Source: Mobula hypostoma (Eukaryota). Taken from it: DNA of 64,000 nt. This document shows positions 1,891 through 58,184 of this stretch, one piece after another. The DNA is taken from the NCBI RefSeq assembly GCF_963921235.1, contig NC_086097.1, forward strand, positions 59,212,001 to 59,276,000. Reading direction: 5' to 3'. A model generated the notes under the pieces. The model was not told the DNA's origin. It searched no databases and worked only from the letters and a program-made list of their open reading frames with translations. A program made the position numbers and the translations under genes. Each line of letters begins with the position of its first letter. Within the stretch, counting starts at the first letter, position 1.

Positions 1891-3964
1891 TATCTTTTCC
1901 TTCTAATGTACTTATTTCCCATCCTGTAAAATCTCTTCCAACAGTGCCCACTGCTAGAATCAGAAGCACACCAACCATCGCTTTAAGAGTCTCTTGTCTA
2001 CAGATTTCTTCTTGTTTAAGGGCAGCCAAGAGAAAAACTAAACCACCTATTTTAATGAGGATATCAGCTGGGCATTGTTAAAAGATGGTTGTAGGCCTCA
2101 TTGATATTTAAAATTTGAAGTCCACTAATATTCTCAACACGATTGGCTTGTGAAGATATATCACTTTCAACAGACTCACTACATGTTGACCTATACTTCC
2201 AGAAATTACATTGGTCCTGCTTTGATGAAAAAAGCCTTAGGGAAGTGAACAGCTGTCAAATATTTCTTCCTTAACATACAGATGGTACGTCTACTACACC
2301 AGAAATTTCTTTGCAAAAGACATGAATTTTGTATGTGTGGTCATTTTAATCATATTAGTGTCAGGAAACTGTCTGCTTTCAGTACTACAGCTTTAAATTA
2401 TATTTGAGGGATATTGCTTACACAGAGGAGATACATTTAATATATGGGTTCACTGTCAGGGAATATCTATGCTTGGGGCCTTTGTGAAATGCTGTCTTAG
2501 AACATTTAAGCTTCTGGAAAAATTCAAACTTGTTTTCAGGAAATGAAATAAAGATCTCCTGATACAGCTGCTAGGCTCTGAAATAAAATTGGTCTGAGTG
2601 TCTAAGTTCCCAGCAAAAAGTCTACATTGTGCTTTATTCAAGACTGACTTTGCAATCTCAGTCAGAAAAGCCAATGTTGTGAAACTGGAGGAGGTTCCTT
2701 ATGCAGTAATAAACATTATTCAGTATTTGAGCTAAAGGAAACCCAAAATTCAAAGAAGTTCATCTAAATATTACCAGAAAATATATGCTAATATTTCATC
2801 AGTTAAAAACATATCAGAAATGAAAATAACTGGCATAAAAGGTGGAACAAGAACAATTAATGAGTTTCAGAAATAATTCATTACCTCCTTATTAATTAAT
2901 AGGATTAAAACTAAACTATTCATGAATAAAATAATTTTTGAAAAGAAAGAACAGTAACTTAGAATTCTCACTGCCTGTAGGCTGTTGATTCTGTGCCAAT
3001 TAGAATTTTGACAATTAAAGACTGATAGTTTATTCTTAACTTGGACCTTTGAGGAATGTAGAACAAGACCTGACCAATGCATGACATCATGTTCTGCCCT
3101 AACCATAAGACTAATCATGCCCAGACTGAATGGTGAAATAGAGTTGAGGGGGCACCACTATATCTAGACACAATATTGTTGAGTAATGCTCTAAAACTGC
3201 AGAATATAAGTGAATTAAATGATAAGGTCCTCCATTGCTTGCAATTGTTAAAGTGAATTTTAGTTTAACTCCAGCTGTGGGAGATAGGAAAGGTTAGGAG
3301 GTTAGGATATTCTGAATTTCAAGGAAAACAAACAGAAGACACGCAGAGACCTCATTAACTTTAATAGTTGAAGTCAAATGATGAAGTCTGCAACAGGGCT
3401 GAATTTTAACAGTGAGTGGTGGCAGTTAGAACCATTGCATGATTCAAGCCGACAGGTTAAAGGCTGCAAATACCAAAATGTCAAGTGGAGTACTGAAGAT
3501 CCTCTCCTTTTAATGGAGAGTGAACCTGGAGGATTAAGGGGCTTGTGGGCCTCAGCAGGACACCTAGTCTTTTCTTAGTCCAGGTCAACGACCTGAATTT
3601 ATTTCCATTCACAGTCCCCTCTCTGCAGCTTAATTGTTCGCTCCGTCTCTTCCAATGTATCTGCTCTTTTCCTGTGTGCTCATTCCTACCTGTAGTGACC
3701 GTCAGAAGGGTAGCAGAAGTCATAGAGCCATACAGCATTTGACCCATTTAGTCTATGTCGATCATTTACACTAATCCATAGTGACCCTGATTCAAGGGAT
3801 TTCTGGAGCATCACTATGGGCTGGACTGTGACCAGTGCCCGGTGACCTTGATGCCTCTTCATGTATTGGCAAAGTGTTGGGGCCCTCTGGCAGCTAAAGA
3901 CTTAGTGGCTAAGACTATATGAGCAGCGCTGCTAATTGTTCATTGCTGAGAATGATTACTATAA

Positions 3965-5184: not shown

Positions 5185-6580
5185 CTTCAAGGCATCAGGT
5201 AGAATCCTAGACCCAACAACCTTCAAATGCCTCATCAATGTTCTTCCTTCTATTACAAGATCAAAAAGGAGGGACATTTACTCATAATTGCCCACTGTTG
5301 AACTCCATTTGCAACTTCTCAGCAAATAAATCAGTCCATGCGCACATACTTTGAGATCTAGATAACATTCAGGCATGGGATGCAAAGTGGCAACTGATAT
5401 TTGTTCCTACAGCTATCTTGACTAAAACCATCTCCCACCCTGTTTCCTGTACAAATGCCAATACCTTTTCCCAGCTCCATTGTCTCCACCACATCTGTTC
5501 CCAGGATGCAGCTTTCCTTTCCCGGACATCAGAGATGTCCTTCTTCTTAAAAGAACGGGGTTTCCCTTCCTCCGCTATTAATGCTGCCCTCACCCAGATT
5601 TCCTCCATTTTTCAAACATATGCGCTCATCCCATCTTCCCGCCACCTTAACAAGGATAGAGTTCCTCTTGTCCTTACCTACCACCTCATGAGCCTCTGCA
5701 TACCAACGCATTATTTTTCACAACTTGCACCATCTCCAAGTGGATCCTACCATGAAACACATCTTTACCAAACCCCCCACCCTTCACTTTTGGCAGGAGT
5801 CGCTCTCTGCCTGATTCCCTTGTCCATTCGTCCCTCCATACTAATCTCCCTCCTGGCACTTATTCATGCATGTAGTCGAAGTGCAACATCAGCCCATTCA
5901 TTTCCTCCCTCACCTCCATTCAATGCCCCAGACGGTCCTTCCAGGTGAGGCAATACTTCACCTGTGAATCTGCTGTGGTTATGTATTGTGTCGGGTGCTC
6001 TTGACACAGCCTTCTGTACATTAGTGGGACCCGTCGTAACTTGGGGGAATGCCTCGTCGAGAGCCTCCGCTCCATTTGCCAAAAGCGGAATTTCCTGGTG
6101 GCCAAACATTTTAATTCCGATTCCCATTCACCATTTCAGCATTTACGGGGCACAAGTCAGGATTCTCTCCACTTGCACAACTCCAGCTCTCAAATGAATT
6201 ATTATCTGGGACAAGGCAGCCCAATTTATTGGTTCTGAACTAACCACCTTTAATATTTATTCCCTTCTCCACTGTGGCTGTAGTGTGCATTGTCTAAAAA
6301 ATACACAGTCATTAATTGCCTCAGCTACTCTGAAAGGATCCTTGATCCTTGTCTTCCATCTTTAAGAAGGGCAAGGTCACCATGAAGGTAGGAAGGCCTT
6401 CATGGTGATATGTATGTTGCTCCTCCAAATCACATGATACCATGATTTGGAAATATATCACTGAGTCTAAATCTGAGAACTGCTTTTACAATAGCATTGT
6501 GGTCAGTAGAACAACACTGATCCAATTCATCATTATCTTTTCAAGAGTAACAAAGCACTGACAATAAACACTGGCCTGAA
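5185..6580 (+). mobile_element. Old CR1-like LINE RT/3' fragment, split by a PLE insertion at ~5420-6128
   Basis: SGRILDPTTFKCLINVLPSI (PQGSILGP..F.CFINDLPS-like); LINE-like sequence resumes after 6128. Confidence 0.55.
5420..6128 (+). mobile_element. PLE fragment (thumb/linker plus GIY-YIG endonuclease)
   Basis: FSQLHCLHHICSQDAAF..RTSEMSFFLKERGFPSSAI..RVPLVLTYH; LGECLVESLRSICQKRNFLVAKHFNS; homologous to 880-1320. Confidence 0.85.
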
Positions 6581-12350: not shown

Positions 12351-12487
12351 CGCATACCACAAAAAAAAGTAGCTTGGAGAAAAGAATTAAGAGGTATTCT
12401 CCTTAATGGCAACTTCACAGTGTCACAATGTGACATAATGATCTGAAATTACCATTTCTAGTGAAAGTAGTACTGAGTAAAAGGTAA

Positions 12488-12583
12488 ACACGAGGAAATC
12501 TGCAGATGCTGGAACTTCAAGCAACACACATCAAAGTTGCTGCCTGGCCTGCTGCGTTCACCGACAACTTTGATGTGTGTTGC
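12488..12583 (-). mobile_element. Short PLE-pLTR-derived fold-back insertion
   Basis: 15-bp TSD ctgagtaaaaggtaa (12473-12487 / 12584-12598); perfect 19-bp inverted repeat 12521-12539 / 12565-12583; homologous to PLE 3' end. Confidence 0.88.
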
Positions 12584-15500
12584 CTGAGTAAAAGGTAACA
12601 GGTTTGGAGGGGCAGAACTAAACTACCACCAAGTTTCAGCATTTTACCTTAATCATGCTGATCGCTGTATCAACTCAATATAATACTGAAATCTGGTTGA
12701 TATATCAGTACTGTTGTCTTGTTAACTACACAATTTACCACCACTAAAGTGAATTAAAATTTACAATTATTATTGTTAAAAATGCTGTAAGGGAAGGGAA
12801 AATCTGGTCTGGCCTTTGAATTTGTTTGCTAATGGTTAAATTAAATTATTTAAAGAACCGTATCTGAGGCAGTAGACTAGATAAACTCACAATACCATAA
12901 CAGTATATTGCACATCTATGGAATGGAATTAGTTCTGCAATGTTAGCTGTTTCAACTTAGATCCTGAAAAAACAAAGTTAGGAAAGTTTCAAGACATGCA
13001 TTATTTACATGCATCGAATGCAATAACATAATGTGAAAGGAGAACAGGTCCATTAATGCTTATCATGTGCACAATTTTCTCCAAACTCCAGCAGTGCCAA
13101 TTCCTGGAGGAGTCACATAGTTCATCTTCATCAGATGTCTTACCCATAAAGGAGAACTTGGATATAAATAATGCTATAACCAATCTTTGTAAGGAAACGT
13201 GATAAATACTTGCATCTGCATTATTAATTTCAGCCAAAATAATTTCCTGGTGTCTGTATTGAACAAATTGCAAATATTCCTAATGATATGGTAATTTCAA
13301 GTTAATAAATGGATTCCATTTTATCCATCTGATCAGATCCCTTGCATGAATGGTTTTGCAGTTAATTGTGAATACACTTGCTCTGATTAGATTTCATTCT
13401 ACTCTAGTCAGAAATTGTTGAAACTTTTCACTTTTCTTATTCTGTTATTTAGGAGCAGCATATCACACCTTGATATTTAATGCCATTATATATGGCTAGT
13501 GAAATTCCTTCTAACAATCAGCTGTAAATACCCACTTGGTGCATATGTCATTCTGGCACTTTGCATTCTGGCATGATAAAGACAGCAGAATTAAAATATA
13601 CTCCGAACAAGAATTTCATGTAATTCCATTTGCCACAAATGCAGTGATTTGGTCCAGTCTTTCAAATAAGCAAATGCCAAATGAAGGCAAATTTTCTCCT
13701 TGAATAACTTGGCACAATTCCACTTGTTGTTTTCCTGCCAATTACTGGACGAAAATCTCCACCTTCCAGTACTGCAGTAATAATAAAAATTTAGCCTTAG
13801 TTTAAAGAACCACTGCATTTTCTGTATTTTTATTGTGATACTGAATTAGAAATACATTGGTCATTAAGTTGTACTTGCAAACCTTTTAAAAAATAGTTCT
13901 TCTTGGTGAAGATGATCTTTACTCAACTGTACATTTTCATGCAAAAATATACAAGTAATTTATGTTCTGTTCAACAACTGTATATAATGATTATTACCCA
14001 GTGTGAACAATTTGTTCTCTCATTACTCAATCACTTCATTCTGAAATAATACTGGGAATTCCAACAGAACATTATTGATGTCAAGATAAACATGGAAAAC
14101 GCTCCTAAAGTTAAATGAATGTCTGACAGTTGTAAAATCAGGCAAACACAAGAGGAAAATGAAAATTATACCAACGGACTGTGGAGCGAGAATGCCATTA
14201 AACAAGATATCAAAAATATATATATAATGGGCTCATTGACCCTTAAACAATAACACTTGCAAACATAACTAAATAAATGCAGTAAGGAAATCCATCATCA
14301 TATAGTTCCAGAAATGTGTAATATATGATTCAAAACCTTCAATTTCAAAAAAACAAGGTAAATGAAATTTGTTTTTTGAATAAATTGTACATTGAAGTAT
14401 TAGATATCACTGCTCTGTAAAAGAGACAAGCCAAAATGATATTGGGATTGTCTCATTTAATATCTGTGGAAGCCCCTGACTGTGTTTGACAGAGTTCCCA
14501 GTTTCAGTTGTGACTGATTCTTGTTATTGGGCCCTGAGAATGAAGCACAAGCTGTTCAGGTATTGATATCAGACTTGCGGCTGGAATGAGCCTAACTCGT
14601 GGCATTTCACTTGATTTTTACAGAATCACTGGATTTATTCCAGCTTTCTATAGCAAACAGTTCTCAGAAATCCACTCACCATCTGCCATTCCACATCTCG
14701 TACAGTCAACCTTTGTTGATCCAAGATGAGACAAAAAAATTACTCTCCCTCTGTAATTATATTTGGTGAATCATATCACTCTTCAATGCTGTATTCCATT
14801 CTTAATCATTCTAATTAAAAAAATTATATCAATCAATCGAACGTTCAGACAGTTCTGAGAATCAAAATATCAGCCAGTAAGGATGCACGCATTTGCAACC
14901 AGACATACCTTACATCAATTTTGAGGTATCCTTTACCCCCATCTGAAGTAGGAGTCAAGCACGATGAATACCCACATATGCGGACTAACATCTGTCTCAG
15001 GTCTAAGTTGTAACATTAAGTATGGTTATATGCAGCCTGCTCCTATATTCTAGTCCTAAGCCCAATCTTCTGATGCAAAATCAGTCGGTGTTCATCTCCC
15101 ACATATTCCAGTGAAGTGGATCACGTGGCCCTTCATTACATTTTTCTGTCCTCTCAGTACTGACTTGTATCTGCATCTAGTTCATAATTCCCATCCCAGT
15201 GTGAATGTGACTCCGACTTGCAGAAATGTGATTGATTCTTAATGGTCATGATAAACCTTGATAAACCTTTTCAGAGGTCACTTAAGTTTAGCAGAAGTTG
15301 TGGCCGGACTATAAAGCATGTCTTATCAGTGACACCCATAACCTGCAATAAGTAAAATAAAATCTTTCATCTAATTAATATCATCAAGGTAAAGTTCTTT
15401 AGTACTTTCCGTAGGAATAAAAGCTGGTTTTGGTAAAAGCGTGATCACTGAGTTTGAGTTATTTGTGACCAATTGATTTTTTCTTATACTGTAACCTTTA

Positions 15501-22400: not shown

Positions 22401-22901
22401 GAAAGTGTTGTCACTGCTGCCAAGAAATCAGCCGCTGATCCTCATGACAGATTTCGTAACTTTGATCTTGAGTGGTTGGAGCTCCTTCAGAATGAGGTTA
22501 TGTACGGTGCACACAGTGAAGTATGCACTCAAAGACATTTTGTGGAATGGGAATCCAGCAGTCCTCATGAAGCCATGCACTGTCCTCCCGTTTAGCACCA
22601 TTGACAAAAGGAGAAAATCTCATCTCTCACATCAAAGAGAATCAAAGAATTCCATTATTGTAATAATGGTTTGCAAACAGAGATGTTGGAAAAGTTTCCA
22701 GTTTCAGCTTGGATGGTGGCCAGTTTATGAAAGATTTATATGAAATAGAGGGGTTCTTTCCCTCCTTTGCAATTGCAGTTCTGCTCAGACAGGTGGAAGG
22801 ATATTGATAGATTGTTTTTCATATTAGTGGAAACTCAGGAATTTGTGGTTTGCACGGGAAACTGGTGCGGAGGTAAACAATCAACCATATTCTTATCACA
22901 A

Positions 22902-23030
22902 GCAAGAGAAAAGCTGCAGATGCTGGAAATCCGAGCAGCACACACAAAATGCTGAAGGAACTCAACAGGCCAGGCAGCATCTATGGAAACGAGTACAGTC
23001 AATGTTGCGGGCCGAACCCTTCGGCAGGAA
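22902..23030 (-). mobile_element. Short PLE pLTR-derived element with degenerate hammerhead
   Basis: Minus strand ttcctgccgaagggttcggcccgcaacattgactg..ttccagcatctgcagcttttctcttg. Confidence 0.8.
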
Positions 23031-23894: not shown

Positions 23895-24400
23895 TGCAAC
23901 ACACAGAAAATGTCAGAGGTACACAGCAGGTCAGGCAGCATCTATGGAGGGGAATGAACAGTCGACAATTCAGGCTGAAGCCCTTCATCAGGACTGGAAA
24001 GGAAGGCGGAAGAAGCCATAATAAGAAGGGGGAGGGAGGAGAGAAGGAGTACAAGCTAGCAGGTAATTTCTGAATCAAGGTCAAGGACAAAGTGGGTAGT
24101 GGCGGAGGGGAGTAAAGTAAGAAGCTGGGAGCTGATAGGTTGAATAAGTAAAGGACTGAAGAAGGACGAATCGAATAGGAAAAAATCGTGCACCATGAGA
24201 GAAAGGGAAGGAAGAGGGACATGAGAGAGTAGTGAGTAGAAGGGGTAAGAGGAGAGCTGGAATGGAAAAAGCAGAAATGAGGAGGGGGGAGAATTTACCA
24301 GAAGTTAGGGAGATCAATATTTATGCTATCATGTTAGAGGGTACCCAGACAGAATATGACGTGTTGCCCCTCCAAACTGAGAGTAGCCTCAGGCTGAGAC
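23895..24400 (-). mobile_element. PLE 3' fragment with hammerhead motif (CTGATGA at 23985-23991, minus strand)
   Basis: Minus strand ccagtc-ctgatga-agggcttcagcct-gaattgtc-gactg with 5-bp stem I cagtc/gactg; G/A-rich region is the reverse complement of the 1390-1750 type sequence. Confidence 0.82.
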
Positions 24401-40845: not shown

Positions 40846-41300
40846 CAAAGTAAACTTGTTATCAAAGTACATGTATGTCGCCATCTATAACCCTGACATT
40901 CATTTCCTTCTGGGTATATTCAATAAGTACATAGAATAATAACCAAACACAAGGAATTCTGCAGATACTGGAAATTCAAGCAACACACATCAAAGTTGTT
41001 GGTGAACACAGCAGGCCAGGCAGCATCTCTAGGAAGAGGGACAGTCGACGTTTCAGGCCAAGACCCTTCGTCTGTCCTGACGAAGGGTCGGCCTGAAACA
41101 TCGACTGTACCTCTTCCTAGCGATGCTGCCTGGCCTGTTGCGTTCACCAGCAACTTTGATGTGTGTTGCTTGAATAATAACCATAACAGATTCAATTAAA
41201 GACCACAGCAACTTGGGCATTCAACCATTCTGCAGAAGACAACAAACTGTGCAAATACATAAAGAATGAAATAATAATGATAAATAATCAATAAAGATTT
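40846..41300 (-). mobile_element. Rex1-type 3' tail hosting a PLE fold-back insertion
   Basis: caaagtaaacttgttatcaaagtacatg..accctgacattc, homologous to 54580 and 63640 tails. Confidence 0.7.
40946..41171. mobile_element. PLE-pLTR fold-back insertion with two opposed hammerhead motifs
   Basis: 12-bp TSD gaataataacca (40934-40945 / 41172-41183); ~100-bp inverted arms; + strand CTGACGA 41077-41083 ..GAAACATC GACTG; - strand GACGA AGGGTCTTGGCCT GAAACGTC GACTG. Confidence 0.9.
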
Positions 41301-46177: not shown

Positions 46178-49100
46178 GTAAGCCCATAGGACATAGGAGC
46201 AGAATTAGGCCATTTGGCCCACTGAGACTCCTCTGCCATTCAATCATGGCTGATCCTTTCTTCACCTCCTCAGTCCCACTCCCCAGCCTTCTCCTGTAAC
46301 CATTAATGCCATATCCATCAAGAACCTATCAATCTCTGCTTTAAATACATCAAACAACCTGGCTTCCACAGCTGCCTGTGGTAACAAATGCCACAAATTC
46401 ACCACCCTTTGGCGAAAGAAATTTCTCCTCATCTCTGTTTTAAATGGACGCTCCTCTATCCTGAGGCGGTGCTCTCTTGTCCTAGACTCTCCCACCATGG
46501 GAAACATTCTTTCCACATATATTCTGTCTAGGCCTTTCAACATTCAAAAGTTTTCAATGAGATCCCCACCTCATCCTTCTGAATTCCAGCAAGTGCAGAC
46601 CCAGAGCCATCAAACGTTCCTCGCATGATAACCCTTTCGTTCCTGGAGTCATCCTTGTGAACCTCCTTTGGACCCTCTCCACTGCCGACGCATCTTTTCT
46701 TAGATGAGGAACCCAAAACTGTTTACAATACTCAAGATGAGGCCTCATCAGTGTCTTATAAAGCCTCAGCATCACAACCTGCTTTCGTATTCTAGATCTC
46801 TTGAAATGAATGCTTACATTGCATTTGCCTTCCTCACCACTGAATGTACCTGCAAGTTAACCCTTAGGGTGTTCTGCGCAAGGACTCCCAAGACCCTTTG
46901 CATCTCAGATTTTTGGATTTTCTCCTCTTTTAGAAAATAGTTTTCACACTTATTTCTGCTACTAAAGTGCACGGCCATGCATTTTCCAACATTGAATTTC
47001 AAGCAACACACATAAAAGTTGCTGGTGAACACAGCAGGCCAGGCAGTATCATTGATGCTGCCTGATGCTGCCTGGCCTGCTGCGTTCATCAGCAAGTTTT
47101 ATGTGTGTTGCTTGAAATTCCAGCATCTGCAGATTTCCTCGTGATTGTATTTCATTTACCACTTTTTGCCCATTCTCCTAATCTGCCTAAGTCCTTCTGC
47201 AGCCTGTCTGTTTCCTCACCACTACCTGCCCCTCCACCAATCTTCGCATCATCTGCTAACTTGGAAACAAAGCCGTCTATTCCATCATCTAAGTCGTTGA
47301 TATACAAGATAAAAAGAAGTGATCCCAACACCGCCCCTGTGGAACACTACTAGCCATTAGCAGACAACCAGAAAAGGATCCTTTTATTCACATTCACTGT
47401 CTCCTACCAATCAGCCAATGCTCTAACTATGCTAGTAACTCTCTTGTAATACCATGGCTCCTAACTTTGTAAGCAGCCCCATCTGTCGCACCTTGTCAAA
47501 AGCCATTTGGAAGTCCAAATATACAAATTCCACTGTATCCCCTTTATCTATCCTACTTGTAATCTCCTCAAAGAATTCCAACAGGTTCATCAGGCAAGAT
47601 TTTCCTTTAAGGAAACCATGCTGACTTTGTCCTATCTTGACCTGTCTCACCAAGTACTCCATAACCTCATCCTTAATATCTTCCCAACCCCTGAGTTCAG
47701 GCTAACTGGTCTATAATTTCCTTTCTGCAGCCTTCCTCCTTTCTTAAAGAATGGTGTGACATTTTCAATTTTCTGGCTCTCTGACTACATGCCAGAGTCC
47801 AATGATTTCTGAAAGATCATTACCAATGCTTGCACAATCTCTACCGCTACCTCATTCAGAACGCTAGGGGCAGTTCAAATGGTCCATGTGACTTATGTAC
47901 CCGTAGGTCTTTCAGCTTTTTTAGTACCTTCTCCCTTGTAATAGGAACTGTACTCACTTCTCTTCCCTTACACATTTCAACATCTGCCGCACTGCTAGTG
48001 TCTTCCACTGTGAAGACTGATGCAAAATACTCATTTTTAAATGCTTGAAAAAGCTTTTTCTATCTACCTTGATACTGTTTGCCAACTTGATTTCATGTTT
48101 TGTCTTTTCCCTCCTAATAGTTCTTTTAGTAGGCTTTTAAAAGCTTCCCAGTCCTCTATCTTCCTACTAATTTTTGTTTTGTTGTATACCCTCTCTTTTG
48201 CTTTTACGTTAGCTTTGACTTTCCTTGTCAGCCACAATTGTACTGTTTTGCCATTTGAGTATTTCTTCATTTTTGGAATACATCCATTCTGTACCTTCTT
48301 TATTTATCCCAGAAACTCACGCCATTGCTGCTCTGCTGTCATCCCTGCCAGCTTCTCCTTCCAATTTGCTTTGGCCAACTCCTCGCTCATATCACTGTAA
48401 TTTGCTTTTCTCCACTGCAATACTGCTATGTCAGGCATTACCTTCTTCCTATCAAATTTAGGTTGAACTTATTCGTATTGTGATCACTGTCTCTGAAGGG
48501 ATCTTTCACCTTATGCTCCCTAATCACCTCCAGTTCTTTGCATAACTCTCAATTCAATATAGCTGATCTTCTAGTAGGCTGAATGACATACTGCTCTAAA
48601 AAGCCATCTTGTAGGCATTCAACACTCCCTTGAGATCCATTTCCAACCTGATCTTTCCAATCAGCATGCATGTTCAAATCTCTCATGACGATCATAACAT
48701 TGCCTTTTTGACACATCTTTTTTATATCCCATTTTAATCTGTGGTCCACATCCAAGATACTGTTGTGAGCCCTGTATATAACTGCCACCAGAGTCCTTTT
48801 ACCCTTGCAGTTTCTTAACTCAACACACTAGGATTCAACATCTCCTCATCCTATGTCACATCTTTCTACTGATTTGATGCCATTCTTTACCAGCAGAGCC
48901 ACACCACATCCTCTGCTGAACTTCCTCTGCCTCCTATACAACATGTAACCTTGGACAATCAGCTCCCAACTACAACCATCCTTCAGCCATGATTCAGTGA
49001 TATCCATAACATCATACTTGACAATCTGTAATAGTGCAACAAGATCATCCACCTTGTTTCTTATACTCCCCCGTGCATTGAGATATAACACTTTGAGTGC

Positions 49101-52752: not shown

Positions 52753-53032
52753 TGGGCATTATGGTAGCATAGCTCGTTAGCACAGTGCTCTTTCAGCTCA
52801 GGCCAGAGTTCAGTTCCGGTGTCCTCTATAAGAAAGTATGTACGATCTTCCCGGTATGTACATGGGTTTCCTTCAGGCACTCCAGTGTCCTTCCACAGTC
52901 CAAAGGTCCATCAGTTCATAGGTTAACTGGTGAATTGTCCTGTGATTAGGCAAGGGTTAAATCAGTGGGTTGCTGGGCAGCGTGGCTCAGTGGGGCAGAC
53001 GGGCCTGTTCTGTGTTATATCTCTAAATAAAT
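52753..53032 (+). mobile_element. V-SINE/HE1-like SINE
   Basis: tRNA-like head tggtagcatagctcgttagcac..gagttcagttcc; core atgggtttccttcaggcactccagtgtccttccacagtccaaa; CR1-like tail gggcctgttctgtgttatatctctaaataaa. Confidence 0.78.
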
Positions 53033-53169
53033 CATAAAAATATAGATTAATAATGTTGACAGAAGTGCCATCAACAACAGTCAAAAGTTAGTATGGTCAT
53101 TCCTTTGGAATAAATGGTGTTATGACTCATATTATATGTAACATGGAATAACATGAGTGTACAAGCCAT

Positions 53170-53830
53170 TAAACTTCTGGTACTTTGTAGTATACTAGTC
53201 ACATTTCTAAGACTTCTACTCAAAAGTGGCTCAACCCCCTGGTAAGGTGTTAAAGAACACTTATGGCACTTTTGCCTTTATGAACTGAGGCATTGTGTTC
53301 AAAATTCAGGATGTTATGTTTCAGTTAGGCTGCATCTGGAAAATTGCATTCAGTTCTGGAATGCAATAAGAAGGATGGGGAGGTTTTAGAGATTTCCCAG
53401 GACGCCATCCAAATTAGAGTGCATGTGCTACAGGTGGAGGTTGAACAAGCTAGGGTGGTTGTCTTTGGAGAGGCAGAGTCTGAGGGGAGACCTGATACGA
53501 GTTTATAAGATTATGAGAGACATCAATAGAACAGACAGACAGAATGTTTAATCCAGGGTTGAAATATCTAAGGTAAGGTGGGGGGAGGGGTGGGTGTAAG
53601 GTTCTTTACAAACAGTGCCTGGAATGTGTTGCCAGGGAGGTTAGTAGAGTCAAATACAACGGAGCTGTTTAAAAGTCTCTTACTTAGACACGTGAATGTG
53701 CACAGAATGAAGGAATATGAACAAAGTGTAGGCAGAAGGGATTAGTCAATTGTAATGTTTAATTACTGGCTTAATTAGTAAGGCACCATATCATGGCAAA
53801 AGGGTCTGGTTTTGTTTTGTACTGTTCTTC
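53170..53830 (+). mobile_element. Decayed CR1 3' fragment
   Basis: HLENCIQFW; LERQSLRGDLIRVYKIMRDINR. Confidence 0.75.
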
Positions 53831-54240
53831 TTATAAAATCAGAACTTAACATATGGACTTAAATAACAGAGTGGAATTGTACAAATGATGGAAGAAAATC
53901 ATAGGAGATTAAATTAGAAAAAGTAATGTTAAAATTGGTACCTAATGATAAGTGGAGGAACCTGAAGTTAATGCCATGTGTGCTTATTTTTAGTGGTTTG
54001 GACTATGATAGAGTTAGTAAAGTCTTAGTTGGAATGCAATTCAATGGAAGAAGAGAGATTAATTTCTTACCAATATAACTGATAACTTTAGTCAACTTCT
54101 CTTGCCCCATCACTGAAAAGTTCCCTCAACCATCTCATGTTCTGTATATTTATTGCTTAATTATTTATTATTATTATTTCTTTTTTTTTGTATTTGCACT
54201 GTCTGTTGTTTTTTCACAGTGGTTGAATGCCCAGGTTGGT

Positions 54241-54428
54241 TTCGGATCTCCCCCTCCCTCTCCCACTTTCAAATCTCTTACTAGCTCTTCTTTCAGTTAG
54301 TCCTGATGAAGGGTCTCGGTCCGAAACGTCGACTGTACCTCTTCCTAGAGATGCTGCCTGGCCTGCTGTGTTCACCAGCAACTTTTATGTGTGTTGCTTG
54401 AAATTCCAGCATCTGCAGGTTTCCTCGT
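54241..54428 (+). mobile_element. Short PLE pLTR-derived element, best-preserved copy
   Basis: 6-bp TSD gttggt (54235-54240 / 54429-54434); complete 3' end. Confidence 0.9.
54299..54335 (+). ncRNA. Minimal type I hammerhead ribozyme, intact core
   Basis: agtc / CTGATGA (54303-54309) / A / gggt-ctcg-gtcc stem II / GAAACGTC (54323-54330) / gact; predicted cleavage after C54330. Confidence 0.85.
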
Positions 54429-55051
54429 GTTGGTGCAGTCTTTCATTGATTCTATTATGGTTATCATTCTATTATGGATTTAGTGCGTAGTACTGTAAGA
54501 AAGTGAATCTCAGAGTTGTATACAGTGGCATATATGTATTTTGGTAATAAATTTATCTTTAACTTTGAACTTTGATAAATCAAGAGTTCATAGTTCAAAG
54601 TACACATAAGTATGTTACTATATACTACCTTGAGATTCACTTTCGTGCACACAATTGCAGGAAAAAGTACAACAGAATTTTATGGAAAATTATACATAAT
54701 CAAAGACTGACAAACAACCAATGTGCAAAAGAAGAGAAGCTGTGCAAATAAAAATTATTACCAATGACATGAGTTATAATAAGTACTTGAATATAGAATC
54801 ATTTCAGAGCTGTGGTGTGTGAGTTATCCTCACCGGTTCAGGAGCCTGATGCTGGCACAGTAATAACTGCTGCTGAATCTGGTGGTGTAGGACCTAAGGC
54901 TTCTATACCCAGGGGTGTAGTGCTAGTGGGAGCGTGTCCGACACCTCTTTAGGAAAATAGACGAAATAAACAAGCTAATTAATTAGGTGCCACCCAGGGT
55001 GATTTGAGTACCTCAGAAACTGCTGTTCTCCTTTTTACGCACAACAGACTC

Positions 55052-55182
55052 TGGAGTTTACAAAGAATGGTGCCAAAAACAAAAAAAATCTAGTGAGTGG
55101 ACTTAACAAGATGTTTTCACTCATGGAACAGCCACTCGCTGGATTTTATTTTTGTTTTTGGCACCATTCTTTGTAAACTCCA
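55052..55182. repeat. Inverted repeat (~50-bp arms, 31-bp spacer) of a Tc1-like transposase fragment
   Basis: tggagtttacaaagaatggtgccaaaaac..gtgagtgg (55052-55100) versus ccactcgctgg..aaactcca (55132-55182); translates SGVYKEWCQKQKK. Confidence 0.8.
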
Positions 55183-55993
55183 CAATGTACACAATGATGG
55201 CTGTTATGTTTTGTAATTCCAAACTTATGACCTGGTGGTATGATGATGAGCACCATTTACATATTTTTGCATGTAACCCATAATGAATTATTTAAATGAA
55301 CACAAATGCTTAATCAAGCAACATACTTACAATATTACTCGTGTTATTGAAATATTAAATACACAACACTCCTTCTTGCTTATCTTATAAACTTTAACTC
55401 AATATAGAATGCATCTCAAATTTAATAATATGTCTTACTCTGGTCTTCATGACAAGTGGGATCACTCTACTTGGCAGTTGAGACTTATGGTTGTGAAACA
55501 ATCCAAGTTCTGGGGCCTCCTCTGTGGTGGTTGTAGGAGCTGACTCTGGGACTGCAGGAAGTGGTTCTGATGGCTATCTTCTCTAACAATTGACTCTGCT
55601 CTCCTCAACTGACCACTTAGTTGTCTCCAAATTATATCAGATACAATCTCCACTTTGTAGGAGAGTGGTTCAGTTTTGTCCTTAATCTTTTCAAGTACCC
55701 TCCCTTCGTCATCACTGTAGTCGCTAATCAGGACTGCTTGTCCAGGTGTAAAACATCAAACCTCCTTGTTTGAAGAGCCTTCAATTTGTCTCAGCTGCTT
55801 GCCCTCCTTCTGAGATCGGGTTTGAAGAGATTGAAGTGTGAACACAAGGAAGAACCTAGGAACAGCATAACTGGAGAGTAGTTGGTTGTGAAAAGTACTG
55901 CATTGTGATATACAAGGAGGAAATTGGCGAGCTTCTGATTCGGTGTCAATGTAGAGTGTTCTGTTGACATTGCTCACAGTGCATCCTCTAGAC

Positions 55994-58184
55994 CAGCCTT
56001 TCTCAACCTTTTTGTCCTGGAGGAACCCTTGAAATAATTTTTAGGTCTCAGGGATCCTCTGCATAAAAAATGTTTTATCGGCAGCTCACAGTACGTTAGC
56101 ATGATCAGTAACTTGTAAATATAATAATAAATTAAAAATAATTGTCAATGCTCTTTTGAGCAGAGAATAAATCTTTAGTCAACCTTTCTTGTAAAAAACA
56201 GGTAGTTAAGCTTAGCTTACCTTTCTTGAAATTACCTTTCTTGAAGAGATTTAACTCAATTCTTTTACTATCTCTTCTTTCAGTTAGTCTTGATGAATGG
56301 TCTCGGCCCAAAACGTCAACTGTGCTTCTTCCTATAGATGCTGCCTGGTCTGCTGCATTCCACCAGCGTCTTGTATGTGTTGCTTTCTTGAAATTAATCT
56401 CTTTCTTTCCCTTTCATAAATTTTAAAAACTCATAAGGCAAACATAATAAAATCCTGTTAAATAACTGGCTTAAGCCAAAAATGGGATTTAATTTCCTAA
56501 AGGCAGGCTCGGTAGATTTAATTTAAATAAAGCTTGTAAATTGATTTTAATTAATGCTATTTACAATATGAACATTTATTGACAATGTTGAGTAGTAAAG
56601 TTACTAAAAACCATAAGCTGGTCTAGTTGTTGTTTAGTAAAATCAACCATTTTTGTAGCATCATTGAGAACTTTTTCTTTCTTTTCTTTCATCTTTAAAA
56701 GTTGTTCACATCAGCACCTCTCTGTGAAGAAAGCAATATCTTGTGACAAAATCAGAATTTTCTTTTTTTTACAAGAGAAACGAAACCTCCTACAGAGCCA
56801 ACCATTGATAGGGCACCATCAGTACAGATGCCAACACAGTTCCTCTAAGACAGACTTTTAATTTCCAGACATAAAGACAAAACACTAAAAATATCCTGGC
56901 CTTTGTTTGTTTCGGGCAACTTTTTGCAACAGAAAAGAGTTTTCTTGAATTTCACTACCTTTTACATATCTTACAAATGCTATAACATGACATTTATTAG
57001 TGAAATATGTTGACTCATCAACTTGGATAGAAAAGCTGTTGTTTTTCAGTTTATCACTCAAATCCTCTTCGGCATCATGTGACATGTCATCAATATGTTG
57101 ACTTATCGTACTGTTTGAGCGTGAATCCTTTTCAATTTCTCAACTGTATCTTGTCCTAGCATTTTACCCACGATAATTTTACATGCTGCCATAATAAGGT
57201 TATGACCAAGTATGTGACTTTTCCTTTTTTGAATAATAAGTTCTGCTACTAAATGACTTGCTTCCTGGGCCCTTTTACTGAGTGTGACGTTACTAACAAA
57301 GACTTTACTCTGTTTTGAGGTTCCAATGGCCATTTAAAATAATCAACACTTTTATGTGTCATATGTCTGTGATTTGTGGCTAAGTGTCTTTTCAATTTTG
57401 CTGCAGCCATTGCTGCCTTTGTAAGACTAGTAACAATAAAATAGGATAACTTGGATCACCAATCCATATAAGACATATTGAAAAGTTGCACTCATTGTAA
57501 AGACGGACTTTTTTTATATTCGTTGTTGAACTAGTGCAGTGAAATGACTCAGAAGATTATAATAAAATATAAAAAAGAACGGCATAATAAATAACTAAAT
57601 GAGAAAATCGCAAAAAATATGAATACTTCACAATACAATTCACTTCTACCCTACACAATCCATCTTTTGCAACATTTACACAACAGCAATATGGCCGGCC
57701 AGCAGCTGAGTCACACCGTGTAAAAATTCCTTCTTTAGAATGAAAATTTCGCTCCAATTTTTTACTACACCGGTAGAGTTTGCTTGCTCTCATAAGTCAG
57801 TTGGCGGCGTGTAAGGAGAATTTGGAGGAGACAACTTGGGAGGGAGAGGCTGGCGTCATAGCCCAAGTAGGATGCGTTCATTTAATGCTTGGAAAATACA
57901 TTTCACGCTCCTTATTAGCCTACCATTCTCCCCTACGTACAATACAGCATTCAACGGCCTCCCCTATCTTGTGTCAAAAACTGAAAATGGACTCAAACAA
58001 ATAGACATGGTCCTACTGCGTGCTGCCATTCTGAGCTGAGAGACCTCTCATGGGATTGCTATCTGGGCTGCTCAGGCACTACCCACCAATGTGAATGCTA
58101 GCATTATGCGTCACTCGAAGTTCAGAAAACAATGACTATTTTTTAAATCACAATTTCTTGCGGAACACCAGTTGAGAAACCTTG
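55994..58184 (-). mobile_element. hAT Charlie-type transposon, internally deleted, inserted in the Gypsy integrase
   Basis: TIRs cagcctttctcaac / gttgagaaaccttg; TSD ctctagac / ctttacac (6/8, central TA); AQEASHLVAELI..SHILGHNLI and FSIQVDEST..IAFVRYV (ZBED5/SCAND3-like). Confidence 0.87.
56235..56382 (+). mobile_element. Short PLE pLTR-derived element with degenerate hammerhead, inside the Charlie element
   Basis: 14-bp duplication ctttcttgaaatta (56221-56234 / 56383-56396); agtc-ttgatga-atggtctcggccc-aaaacgtc-aactg. Confidence 0.82.

Follow-up and report, generated by a model that had tools for sequence, protein, structure and literature searches.

Organization of the insert and its flanking repeats

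The window, which is the whole 64,000-nt stretch of Mobula hypostoma DNA that was analysed, contained a repeated insert at positions 54240–54431 of the forward strand. From genome matches, contig depth and collinearity, the insert was assigned to the 3′ tail (part of the pseudo-LTR) of an autonomous Penelope-like element (PLE), truncated on its 5′ side. When the interval 54230–54440 was searched against the genome of the same animal (200 contigs, 3.48 Gb), the tail gave at least 2819 first-look candidates. Forty of these were scored; the window itself was recovered at 100% identity and the other 39 at 94–97%, and the matches were confined to window positions 54240–54431 (query positions 11 to about 202). 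Contigs from four of 18 public runs were also examined, at 90% likeness, and provided cover, variants and joints. Very high depth in these contigs was limited to 54240–54431.

The insert was bounded by two direct repeats, GTTGGT, at 54235–54240 and at 54429–54434, and the distance between them was 188 bases. The upstream repeat was recognized from its letters and from contig joints and represented either a target-site duplication (TSD) of 5–6 bp or, in part, microhomology. The downstream repeat overlapped the variable 3′ end of the element, GTGTT(T/G)G. Several contigs joined across the insert, for example from 54233 to 54429 and from 54240 to 54438. In contigs and loose ends, copies of the host repeat passed from ...GAATGCCCA(A/G) directly into GTTGGTGCAG with no insert between them, and loose ends situated before 54429 carried ...CACTGGTTGAATGCCCAA, the sequence that flanks the insert upstream in the window. 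The uninterrupted host-repeat copies in the joints and in the loose ends at 54429 contained a single GTTGGT. Since the joint sides were short (20–29 letters) and the likeness was set at 90%, the joints stem from paralogues of the host repeat and do not show the empty site at the orthologous locus. In the copy alignment the element itself ended in ...CCTCGTGTT(T/G)G; because this end resembles the repeat, up to five of the six repeated letters could be element sequence or priming microhomology. The first-pass annotation had described a 188-bp insert with a 6-bp TSD. The insert and its repeats were real, but the duplication was 5–6 bp long, with edges uncertain by at least 1 base.

The flanks of the insert (54072–54143, 54192–54239, 54432–54479, and 54600–54647) were also repeated, with contig depths from hundreds to tens of thousands in the four runs, which indicates that the PLE tail was inserted within another repeat. 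It is barely credible that the window copy has been co-opted by the host, for instance in a transcript or a regulatory element. The copy sits within that other repeat, its differences (CpG-type and others) occur at the neutral rate of its family, none of the runs recorded as RNA contained the stretch, and no point in favour of co-option was found.

Several other PLE fragments of various ages were present in the window. Short truncated PLE tails formed head-to-head inverted pairs at 12480–12587, 40944–41175, and 46994–47147; the members of the 40944–41175 pair overlapped in the hammerhead region (41065–41086), and a decayed motif was located at 41050–41074. Older fragments, 70–83% identical to the young element, were located at 1–1454, 1745–1891, 5409–6135, 22899–23029, 23896–24391, and 56256–56395. 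Three of the older fragments carried decayed hammerheads, at 1760, 23967, and 56290.

Sequence features of the hammerhead motif

A minimal type I hammerhead motif (min-HHR) was located at 54298–54335 of the forward strand by its letters, by a relaxed descriptor and by comparison with shuffled sequences; its features were those listed in PMC4209133. The 5′ strand of stem I (AGTC, 54299–54302) pairs with the 3′ strand (GACTG, 54331–54335), and T54298 possibly extends the stem through a wobble with G54335. Helix I was composed of four Watson–Crick pairs and one U–G pair, and the topology was of type I. The strands of stem I enclose the core CTGATGA (CUGAUGA; 54303–54309), an extra unpaired A after A9 (54310), stem II (GGGT-CTCG-GTCC; 54311–54322), the GAA of G12–A14 (54323–54325), the palindrome ACGT (ACGU; 54326–54329), and C17 (54330). 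In stem II, residues 54311–54314 pair with residues 54319–54322 around the loop CUCG by two G–C and two G–U pairs, which makes this helix weaker than the majority form of the family.

All core letters, C3, U4, G5, A6, N7, G8, and A9 together with G12, A13, and A14, were present at 54303–54309 and 54323–54325. A15.1 corresponded to A54326 and U16.1 to T54329, and position 17 was occupied by C54330, a residue other than G. The traits of a min-HHR were found in the window copy as the unpaired A54310, the G10.1–C11.1 pair formed by G54311 and C54322, and the palindromic 15.2–16.2 positions, C54327 and G54328. The A15.1–U16.1 pair and helix III as a whole are formable solely between two copies of the motif. 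By hammerhead numbering, self-cleavage is predicted to occur after C17, between 54330 and 54331. The first-pass annotation had stated that a monomer cannot close helix III, and the sequence and the literature (PMC4209133, PMC6765202) agree in suggesting the same; any cleavage would then need a second copy.

The relaxed min-HHR descriptor gave a single match when both strands of the 64-kb window were scanned. The chance expectation was a mean of 0.02 matches per window in 300 dinucleotide-preserving shuffles; six of the 300 shuffles contained a match, and none contained a match with a 4-nt palindromic helix III. Comparison with Rfam gave only snoRNA and miRNA matches at chance level; hammerheads were absent from the results for the 64-kb window at gathering score, for the region 54100–54500 at E ≤ 10, and for a full-length relative. 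The Rfam models likely miss the motif because the helix III hairpin is lacking. The letters that the first-pass annotation had assigned to stem I, the core, the extra A, stem II, GAA, and ACGU were therefore borne out by the window sequence and by the motif descriptor, with all the sequence traits of a minimal type I hammerhead in place, whereas a search with Rfam hammerhead models, which it had proposed as a check, recovered nothing near the site.

3′ ends, hairpin and optional tail

A hairpin with the arms AGCAAC and GUUGCU and an AC-rich 5′ side was located at 54377–54398 of the forward strand, in the minimum-energy fold of residues 54336–54431 (z −1.84). The 3′ ends of short-form copies were on or just past the 3′ arm of this hairpin. 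An optional extension of about 33 nt follows at 54399–54431 and ends at a second cluster of 3′ ends; it was present in the window copy, which is of the long form. Among 66 unselected copies the 3′ ends were bimodal: 25 were located at tail coordinates 165–179 (window 54394–54408) and 25 at coordinates 200–214 (window 54429–54443), about 33 nt further. Both clusters were located at GTGTT(G/T) motifs.

In PAc, a Poseidon-type PLE of Anolis carolinensis, an optional tail of 30–40 bp is described between two start sites of reverse transcription, and an AC-rich stem-loop close to the start (PMC11167929). By analogy, the bimodal 3′ ends of the Mobula copies would match the optional PAc tail, a PLE signature, and the hairpin region is likely the first start of reverse transcription.

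The parent element

Thirty-one copies were aligned together with their flanks. Twenty-nine of the 30 other copies extended 5′ beyond the start of the window copy and shared sequence there. Across the copies compared, such extensions were 40 to more than 1900 bases long and reached into GIY-YIG and reverse-transcriptase coding sequence. The shared sequence began at widely different points, between locus position 1511 and positions below 43 (a spread of more than 1400 bases), and in some cases ran off the loci. A stretch of 1972 bp was common to two copies and contained reverse-transcriptase motifs of the FYLLPKIHKP type and, behind a cysteine-rich linker, a GIY...YIG nuclease motif. A genome search with the reverse-transcriptase protein yielded at least 91,915 first-look candidates, and open frames of more than 1000 aa were present in some copies.

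Two loci, L046 and L047, each contained an open frame of 1043 aa with the tail on both sides. Their layout was a partial tandem, consisting of the end of a GIY-YIG frame with a tail, then the full frame, then a second tail, which places a hammerhead-bearing tail about 150 nt before the ATG and another about 300 nt behind the stop codon. This layout is the pseudo-LTR arrangement of Penelope-like elements. In the 1043-aa frame, Pfam matched RVT_1 to residues 534–696 (E 5.4e-5, 23.4 bits against a curated cut-off of 29.6) and GIY-YIG to residues 946–1020 (E 1.1e-3, 19.7 bits against a curated cut-off of 22.6). Both matches were below the cut-off; the order, RVT_1 followed by a C-terminal GIY-YIG in one frame, was that of endonuclease-positive PLEs. 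The decayed frames of the window copy's own subfamily gave no Pfam match. A search of a large protein collection gave 466 homologues at E ≤ 1e-5. Among the 120 homologues listed of these 466, most carried precomputed PF00078 and 22 also carried PF01541; the best named homologue among the matches listed was from the shark Chiloscyllium punctatum (an uncharacterized protein, 72% identical). Inverted head-to-head pairs of truncated tails, a hallmark of PLEs, were also present.

In the youngest PLE lineage, frames of 1043 aa were open and copies of the frame's start were 97–99% alike. Long copies formed an inverted pair at locus L115 (G000:C5:87538273-87541623) and its neighbours, where the reverse-transcriptase matches at C5:87537617–87538735 (minus strand) and 87540645–87541763 (plus strand) were about 2 kb apart.

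Taken with the features of the motif, residues 54240–54431 are very probably the 5′-truncated 3′ tail of an autonomous PLE that carries the family's minimal type I hammerhead, and the solo copy is likely a non-functional relic. The Penelope-like derivation proposed in the first-pass annotation was upheld in this sense, since an autonomous PLE has a 3′ untranslated tail with which the 192 bases were collinear. Its further claim, that the insert is a short mobile element, SINE-like and non-autonomous, was contradicted by the other copies, which run 5′ into coding sequence and are truncated at scattered points.

A short SINE-like or retrozyme-like element with a hammerhead, mobilised in trans by PLEs, would account for a copy that is short (188–194 bp), non-coding and flanked by a repeat of 5–6 bp. 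Animal non-LTR retrozymes are likewise non-coding and carry a type I hammerhead, and they are reportedly related to PLE terminal repeats (PMC7229834; bioRxiv 10.64898/2026.07.22.740005). According to these sources, however, retrozymes consist of short, tandemly arrayed units from which circular RNAs arise, whereas the window copy is solo and forms the end of a coding element. No tandem array was found within 53000–57000, no tRNA-like head was present, and the short copies had no common, distinct 5′ end. The absence of an array and of a tRNA-like head, together with collinearity with the coding element, identifies a front-truncated retrocopy and makes a SINE-like or retrozyme-like element very improbable.

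Variation of the hammerhead within and between families

The copies of the young family mostly read CTGACGA and GGGTCTCGGCCC. At position 54307, C instead of T accounted for 59–81% of the depth in the four runs and was present in 20 of the other 29 copies of the young family. At position 54320, C accounted for 98–99% of the depth in the four runs, and the T of the window was a minority of 1–2%. T54307 is consistent with decay of a CpG at position 7, which tolerates variation, and since most relatives carry CUGACGA, the textbook CUGAUGA of the window is a derived state. T54320 is a subfamily variant by which the G10.3–C11.3 pair of stem II becomes G–U. The core had been called intact in the first-pass annotation; CUGAUGA was indeed present, but as a derived form beside a stem II weakened by T54320.

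The motif contains five CpGs and decays fast. By a strict descriptor it was intact in 18 of 30 young copies, whereas two older sets retained it in only five of 30 and two of 30 copies. For the young family, non-CpG divergence was 1.92% in the hammerhead and 1.87% in the rest of the tail; the corresponding values were 9.2% and 14.7% in set B, and 12.7% and 13.1% in set C. Covariation of the stems was absent among 88 copies, in which paired cells amounted to 86.7%, compared with 87.3% in shuffles, and double-change cells to six, compared with 15.6 in shuffles, with no compensatory excess; this test is weak because the copies descend, with neutral decay, from nearly one sequence, and the families of the genome have almost one hammerhead sequence in common. 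The excess conservation and stem covariation across copies that the first-pass annotation had looked to were therefore not found in the young family and in the 88 copies, respectively. This lack of excess conservation is as expected for dead copies.

The majority strings of two families, young and older, were compared with each other. Identity amounted to 33 of 36 positions in the hammerhead, whereas the upstream part matched at 35 of 51 and the downstream part at 59 of 69. Stem I was the exact point at which similarity to the older families set in, and among the loose ends many contigs matched 54299–54336 only. Sets B and C were nearly identical at majority level, so that this between-family comparison is one of two families only. 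As judged from these alignments, the conserved block common to PLE families coincides with the hammerhead, and selection is seen between families instead of among copies.

These results bear on a further explanation, in which the block is kept at family level mainly as structured RNA, as a rod hairpin or as a docking or folding site for the reverse transcriptase, while self-cleavage is weak, conditional or dispensable; the likeness to a hammerhead would then overstate its role. Such a block is compatible with the lack of covariation, but it would not readily explain why its edges are exactly the edges of the hammerhead, or why the core letters, the extra base, the 10.1–11.1 pair, and the palindrome are all kept between families.

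In the youngest lineage (L046 at 2700–3000 and 6200–6500 of the minus strand, L047 likewise, and other loci), G10.1–U11.1 was observed in 25 of 25 otherwise intact motifs, and position 7 was C in 24 of the 25.

Prospects for self-cleavage

Nearest-neighbour energies were calculated for the double-hammerhead fold, which was far from the optimum in both forms examined. The window copy gave −6.7 kcal/mol, compared with −23.0 kcal/mol for the dimer optimum, and the majority form gave −17.9 kcal/mol, compared with −35.3 kcal/mol. As a monomer, the majority form folded at minimum energy into a rod through pairing of the core GACG with CGUC. Among 29 near-identical copies holding the frame's start, the 5′ boundaries were scattered and none of the 29 was at the predicted cut (coordinate 102); two were at 108 and 109, 6–7 nt downstream of it. 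Apparent starts clustered at coordinate 70, which is mostly the onset of between-family similarity, besides a small number of genuine truncations and of inverted junctions.

The rod fold of the monomer, a cut site that is unmarked by 5′ ends and the G10.1–U11.1 pair of the youngest lineage speak in favour of a structured RNA. In vitro cleavage of min-HHRs is reported to be low, even for dimers or trimers (PMC4209133), and the hammerhead of PAc is reported to cleave only with the element's protein; mutations of its core abolished cleavage and left in vitro insertion unaffected, and no RNA-seq reads ended at the cut (PMC11167929). On the other hand, the C3G and G8C mutants of PAc lose cleavage and the double mutant partly regains it (PMC11167929), and hammerheads are described in PLE terminal repeats across eukaryotes, with full activity in fungi (PMC4209133). 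With the exact edges and the letters kept between families, a block retained mainly as structured RNA is fairly unlikely, and a hammerhead carried in the tail of a coding PLE is the preferred reading.

For the window copy itself, the closest relic resembling a hammerhead on that strand was at 56290, about 2 kb away, and had two core changes. Because no partner motif is nearby and stem II is weakened, self-cleavage of the window copy is unlikely, and the copy is likely an inert relic.

The PLE literature suggests how such copies may arise. New copies would be made by target-primed reverse transcription starting in the tail, downstream of the hammerhead, and reverse transcription would often stop early, leaving short tail-only copies like that of the window. 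In multi-unit transcripts of active elements, two hammerheads may pair with each other by their ACGU palindromes and be cut after GUC; this cleavage would probably be slow and helped by the element's protein.

With C at position 7, the core can pair into the rod (GACG with CGUC). It is conceivable, though quite unlikely, that in the youngest and apparently still coding lineage the hammerhead with G10.1–U11.1 and C7 acts as a protein-dependent conformational switch or a docking structure instead of an autonomous ribozyme. If true, this enormous young family would be a natural test case for the purpose of PLE hammerheads.

Comparison with known hammerhead systems

Double hammerheads were reportedly described by Forster et al. 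in 1988 for newt satellite 2 and avocado sunblotch viroid, in which helix III is said to be too short within one molecule. The two motifs reportedly share an extended helix III, and the helix III of each motif by itself is said to have 2–3 bp and a small loop. The helix III of the window motif differs in being loopless.

Minimal hammerheads in PLE terminal repeats are already known and have been in print since 2014 (PMC4209133). In that work, Cervera and de la Pena defined the min-HHRs of PLEs by the unpaired base 9/10.1, the G10.1–C11.1 pair, and the palindromic 15.2–16.2 positions, and most genomic motifs were single and came from truncated PLEs (PMC4209133). A dimer model for min-HHRs is given in a review that cites Lunse et al. 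(PMC6765202). The window motif resembles the metazoan PLE min-HHRs of PMC4209133 in its type I topology, a helix I of 4–5 bp, a palindromic helix III, its position in a PLE terminal repeat, the unpaired base 9/10.1, the G10.1–C11.1 pair, and its occurrence as a single motif in a truncated PLE. Min-HHRs are listed there for fishes, coelacanth, Xenopus, and reptiles (PMC4209133); the Mobula family is not among the PLE families named in the available text of that paper. Stem II of the window motif has 4 bp, whereas the Schistosoma and Drosophila examples have 6–8 bp (PMC4209133). The Mobula motifs further differ from those min-HHRs in the C7 of the family majority and in the G–U pair at 10.1–11.1 of the youngest lineage (PMC4209133).

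The Mobula element is also like PAc, as far as PAc is described in PMC11167929, in having a frame with reverse transcriptase and GIY-YIG, a tandem or partial-tandem layout, a hammerhead close to where the terminal repeat meets the frame, two start sites, and an AC-rich stem-loop. The two elements differ in the position of the frame: that of PAc begins inside the hammerhead, at stem II (PMC11167929), whereas the Mobula hammerhead precedes the ATG by about 150 nt.

The window copy serves as a correction, in that a short, duplication-flanked insert bearing a ribozyme motif is not necessarily a SINE or a retrozyme and is here a front-truncated copy of a coding element. As a resource, the very large and very young PLE family to which it leads could serve experiments on the role of the PLE hammerhead.
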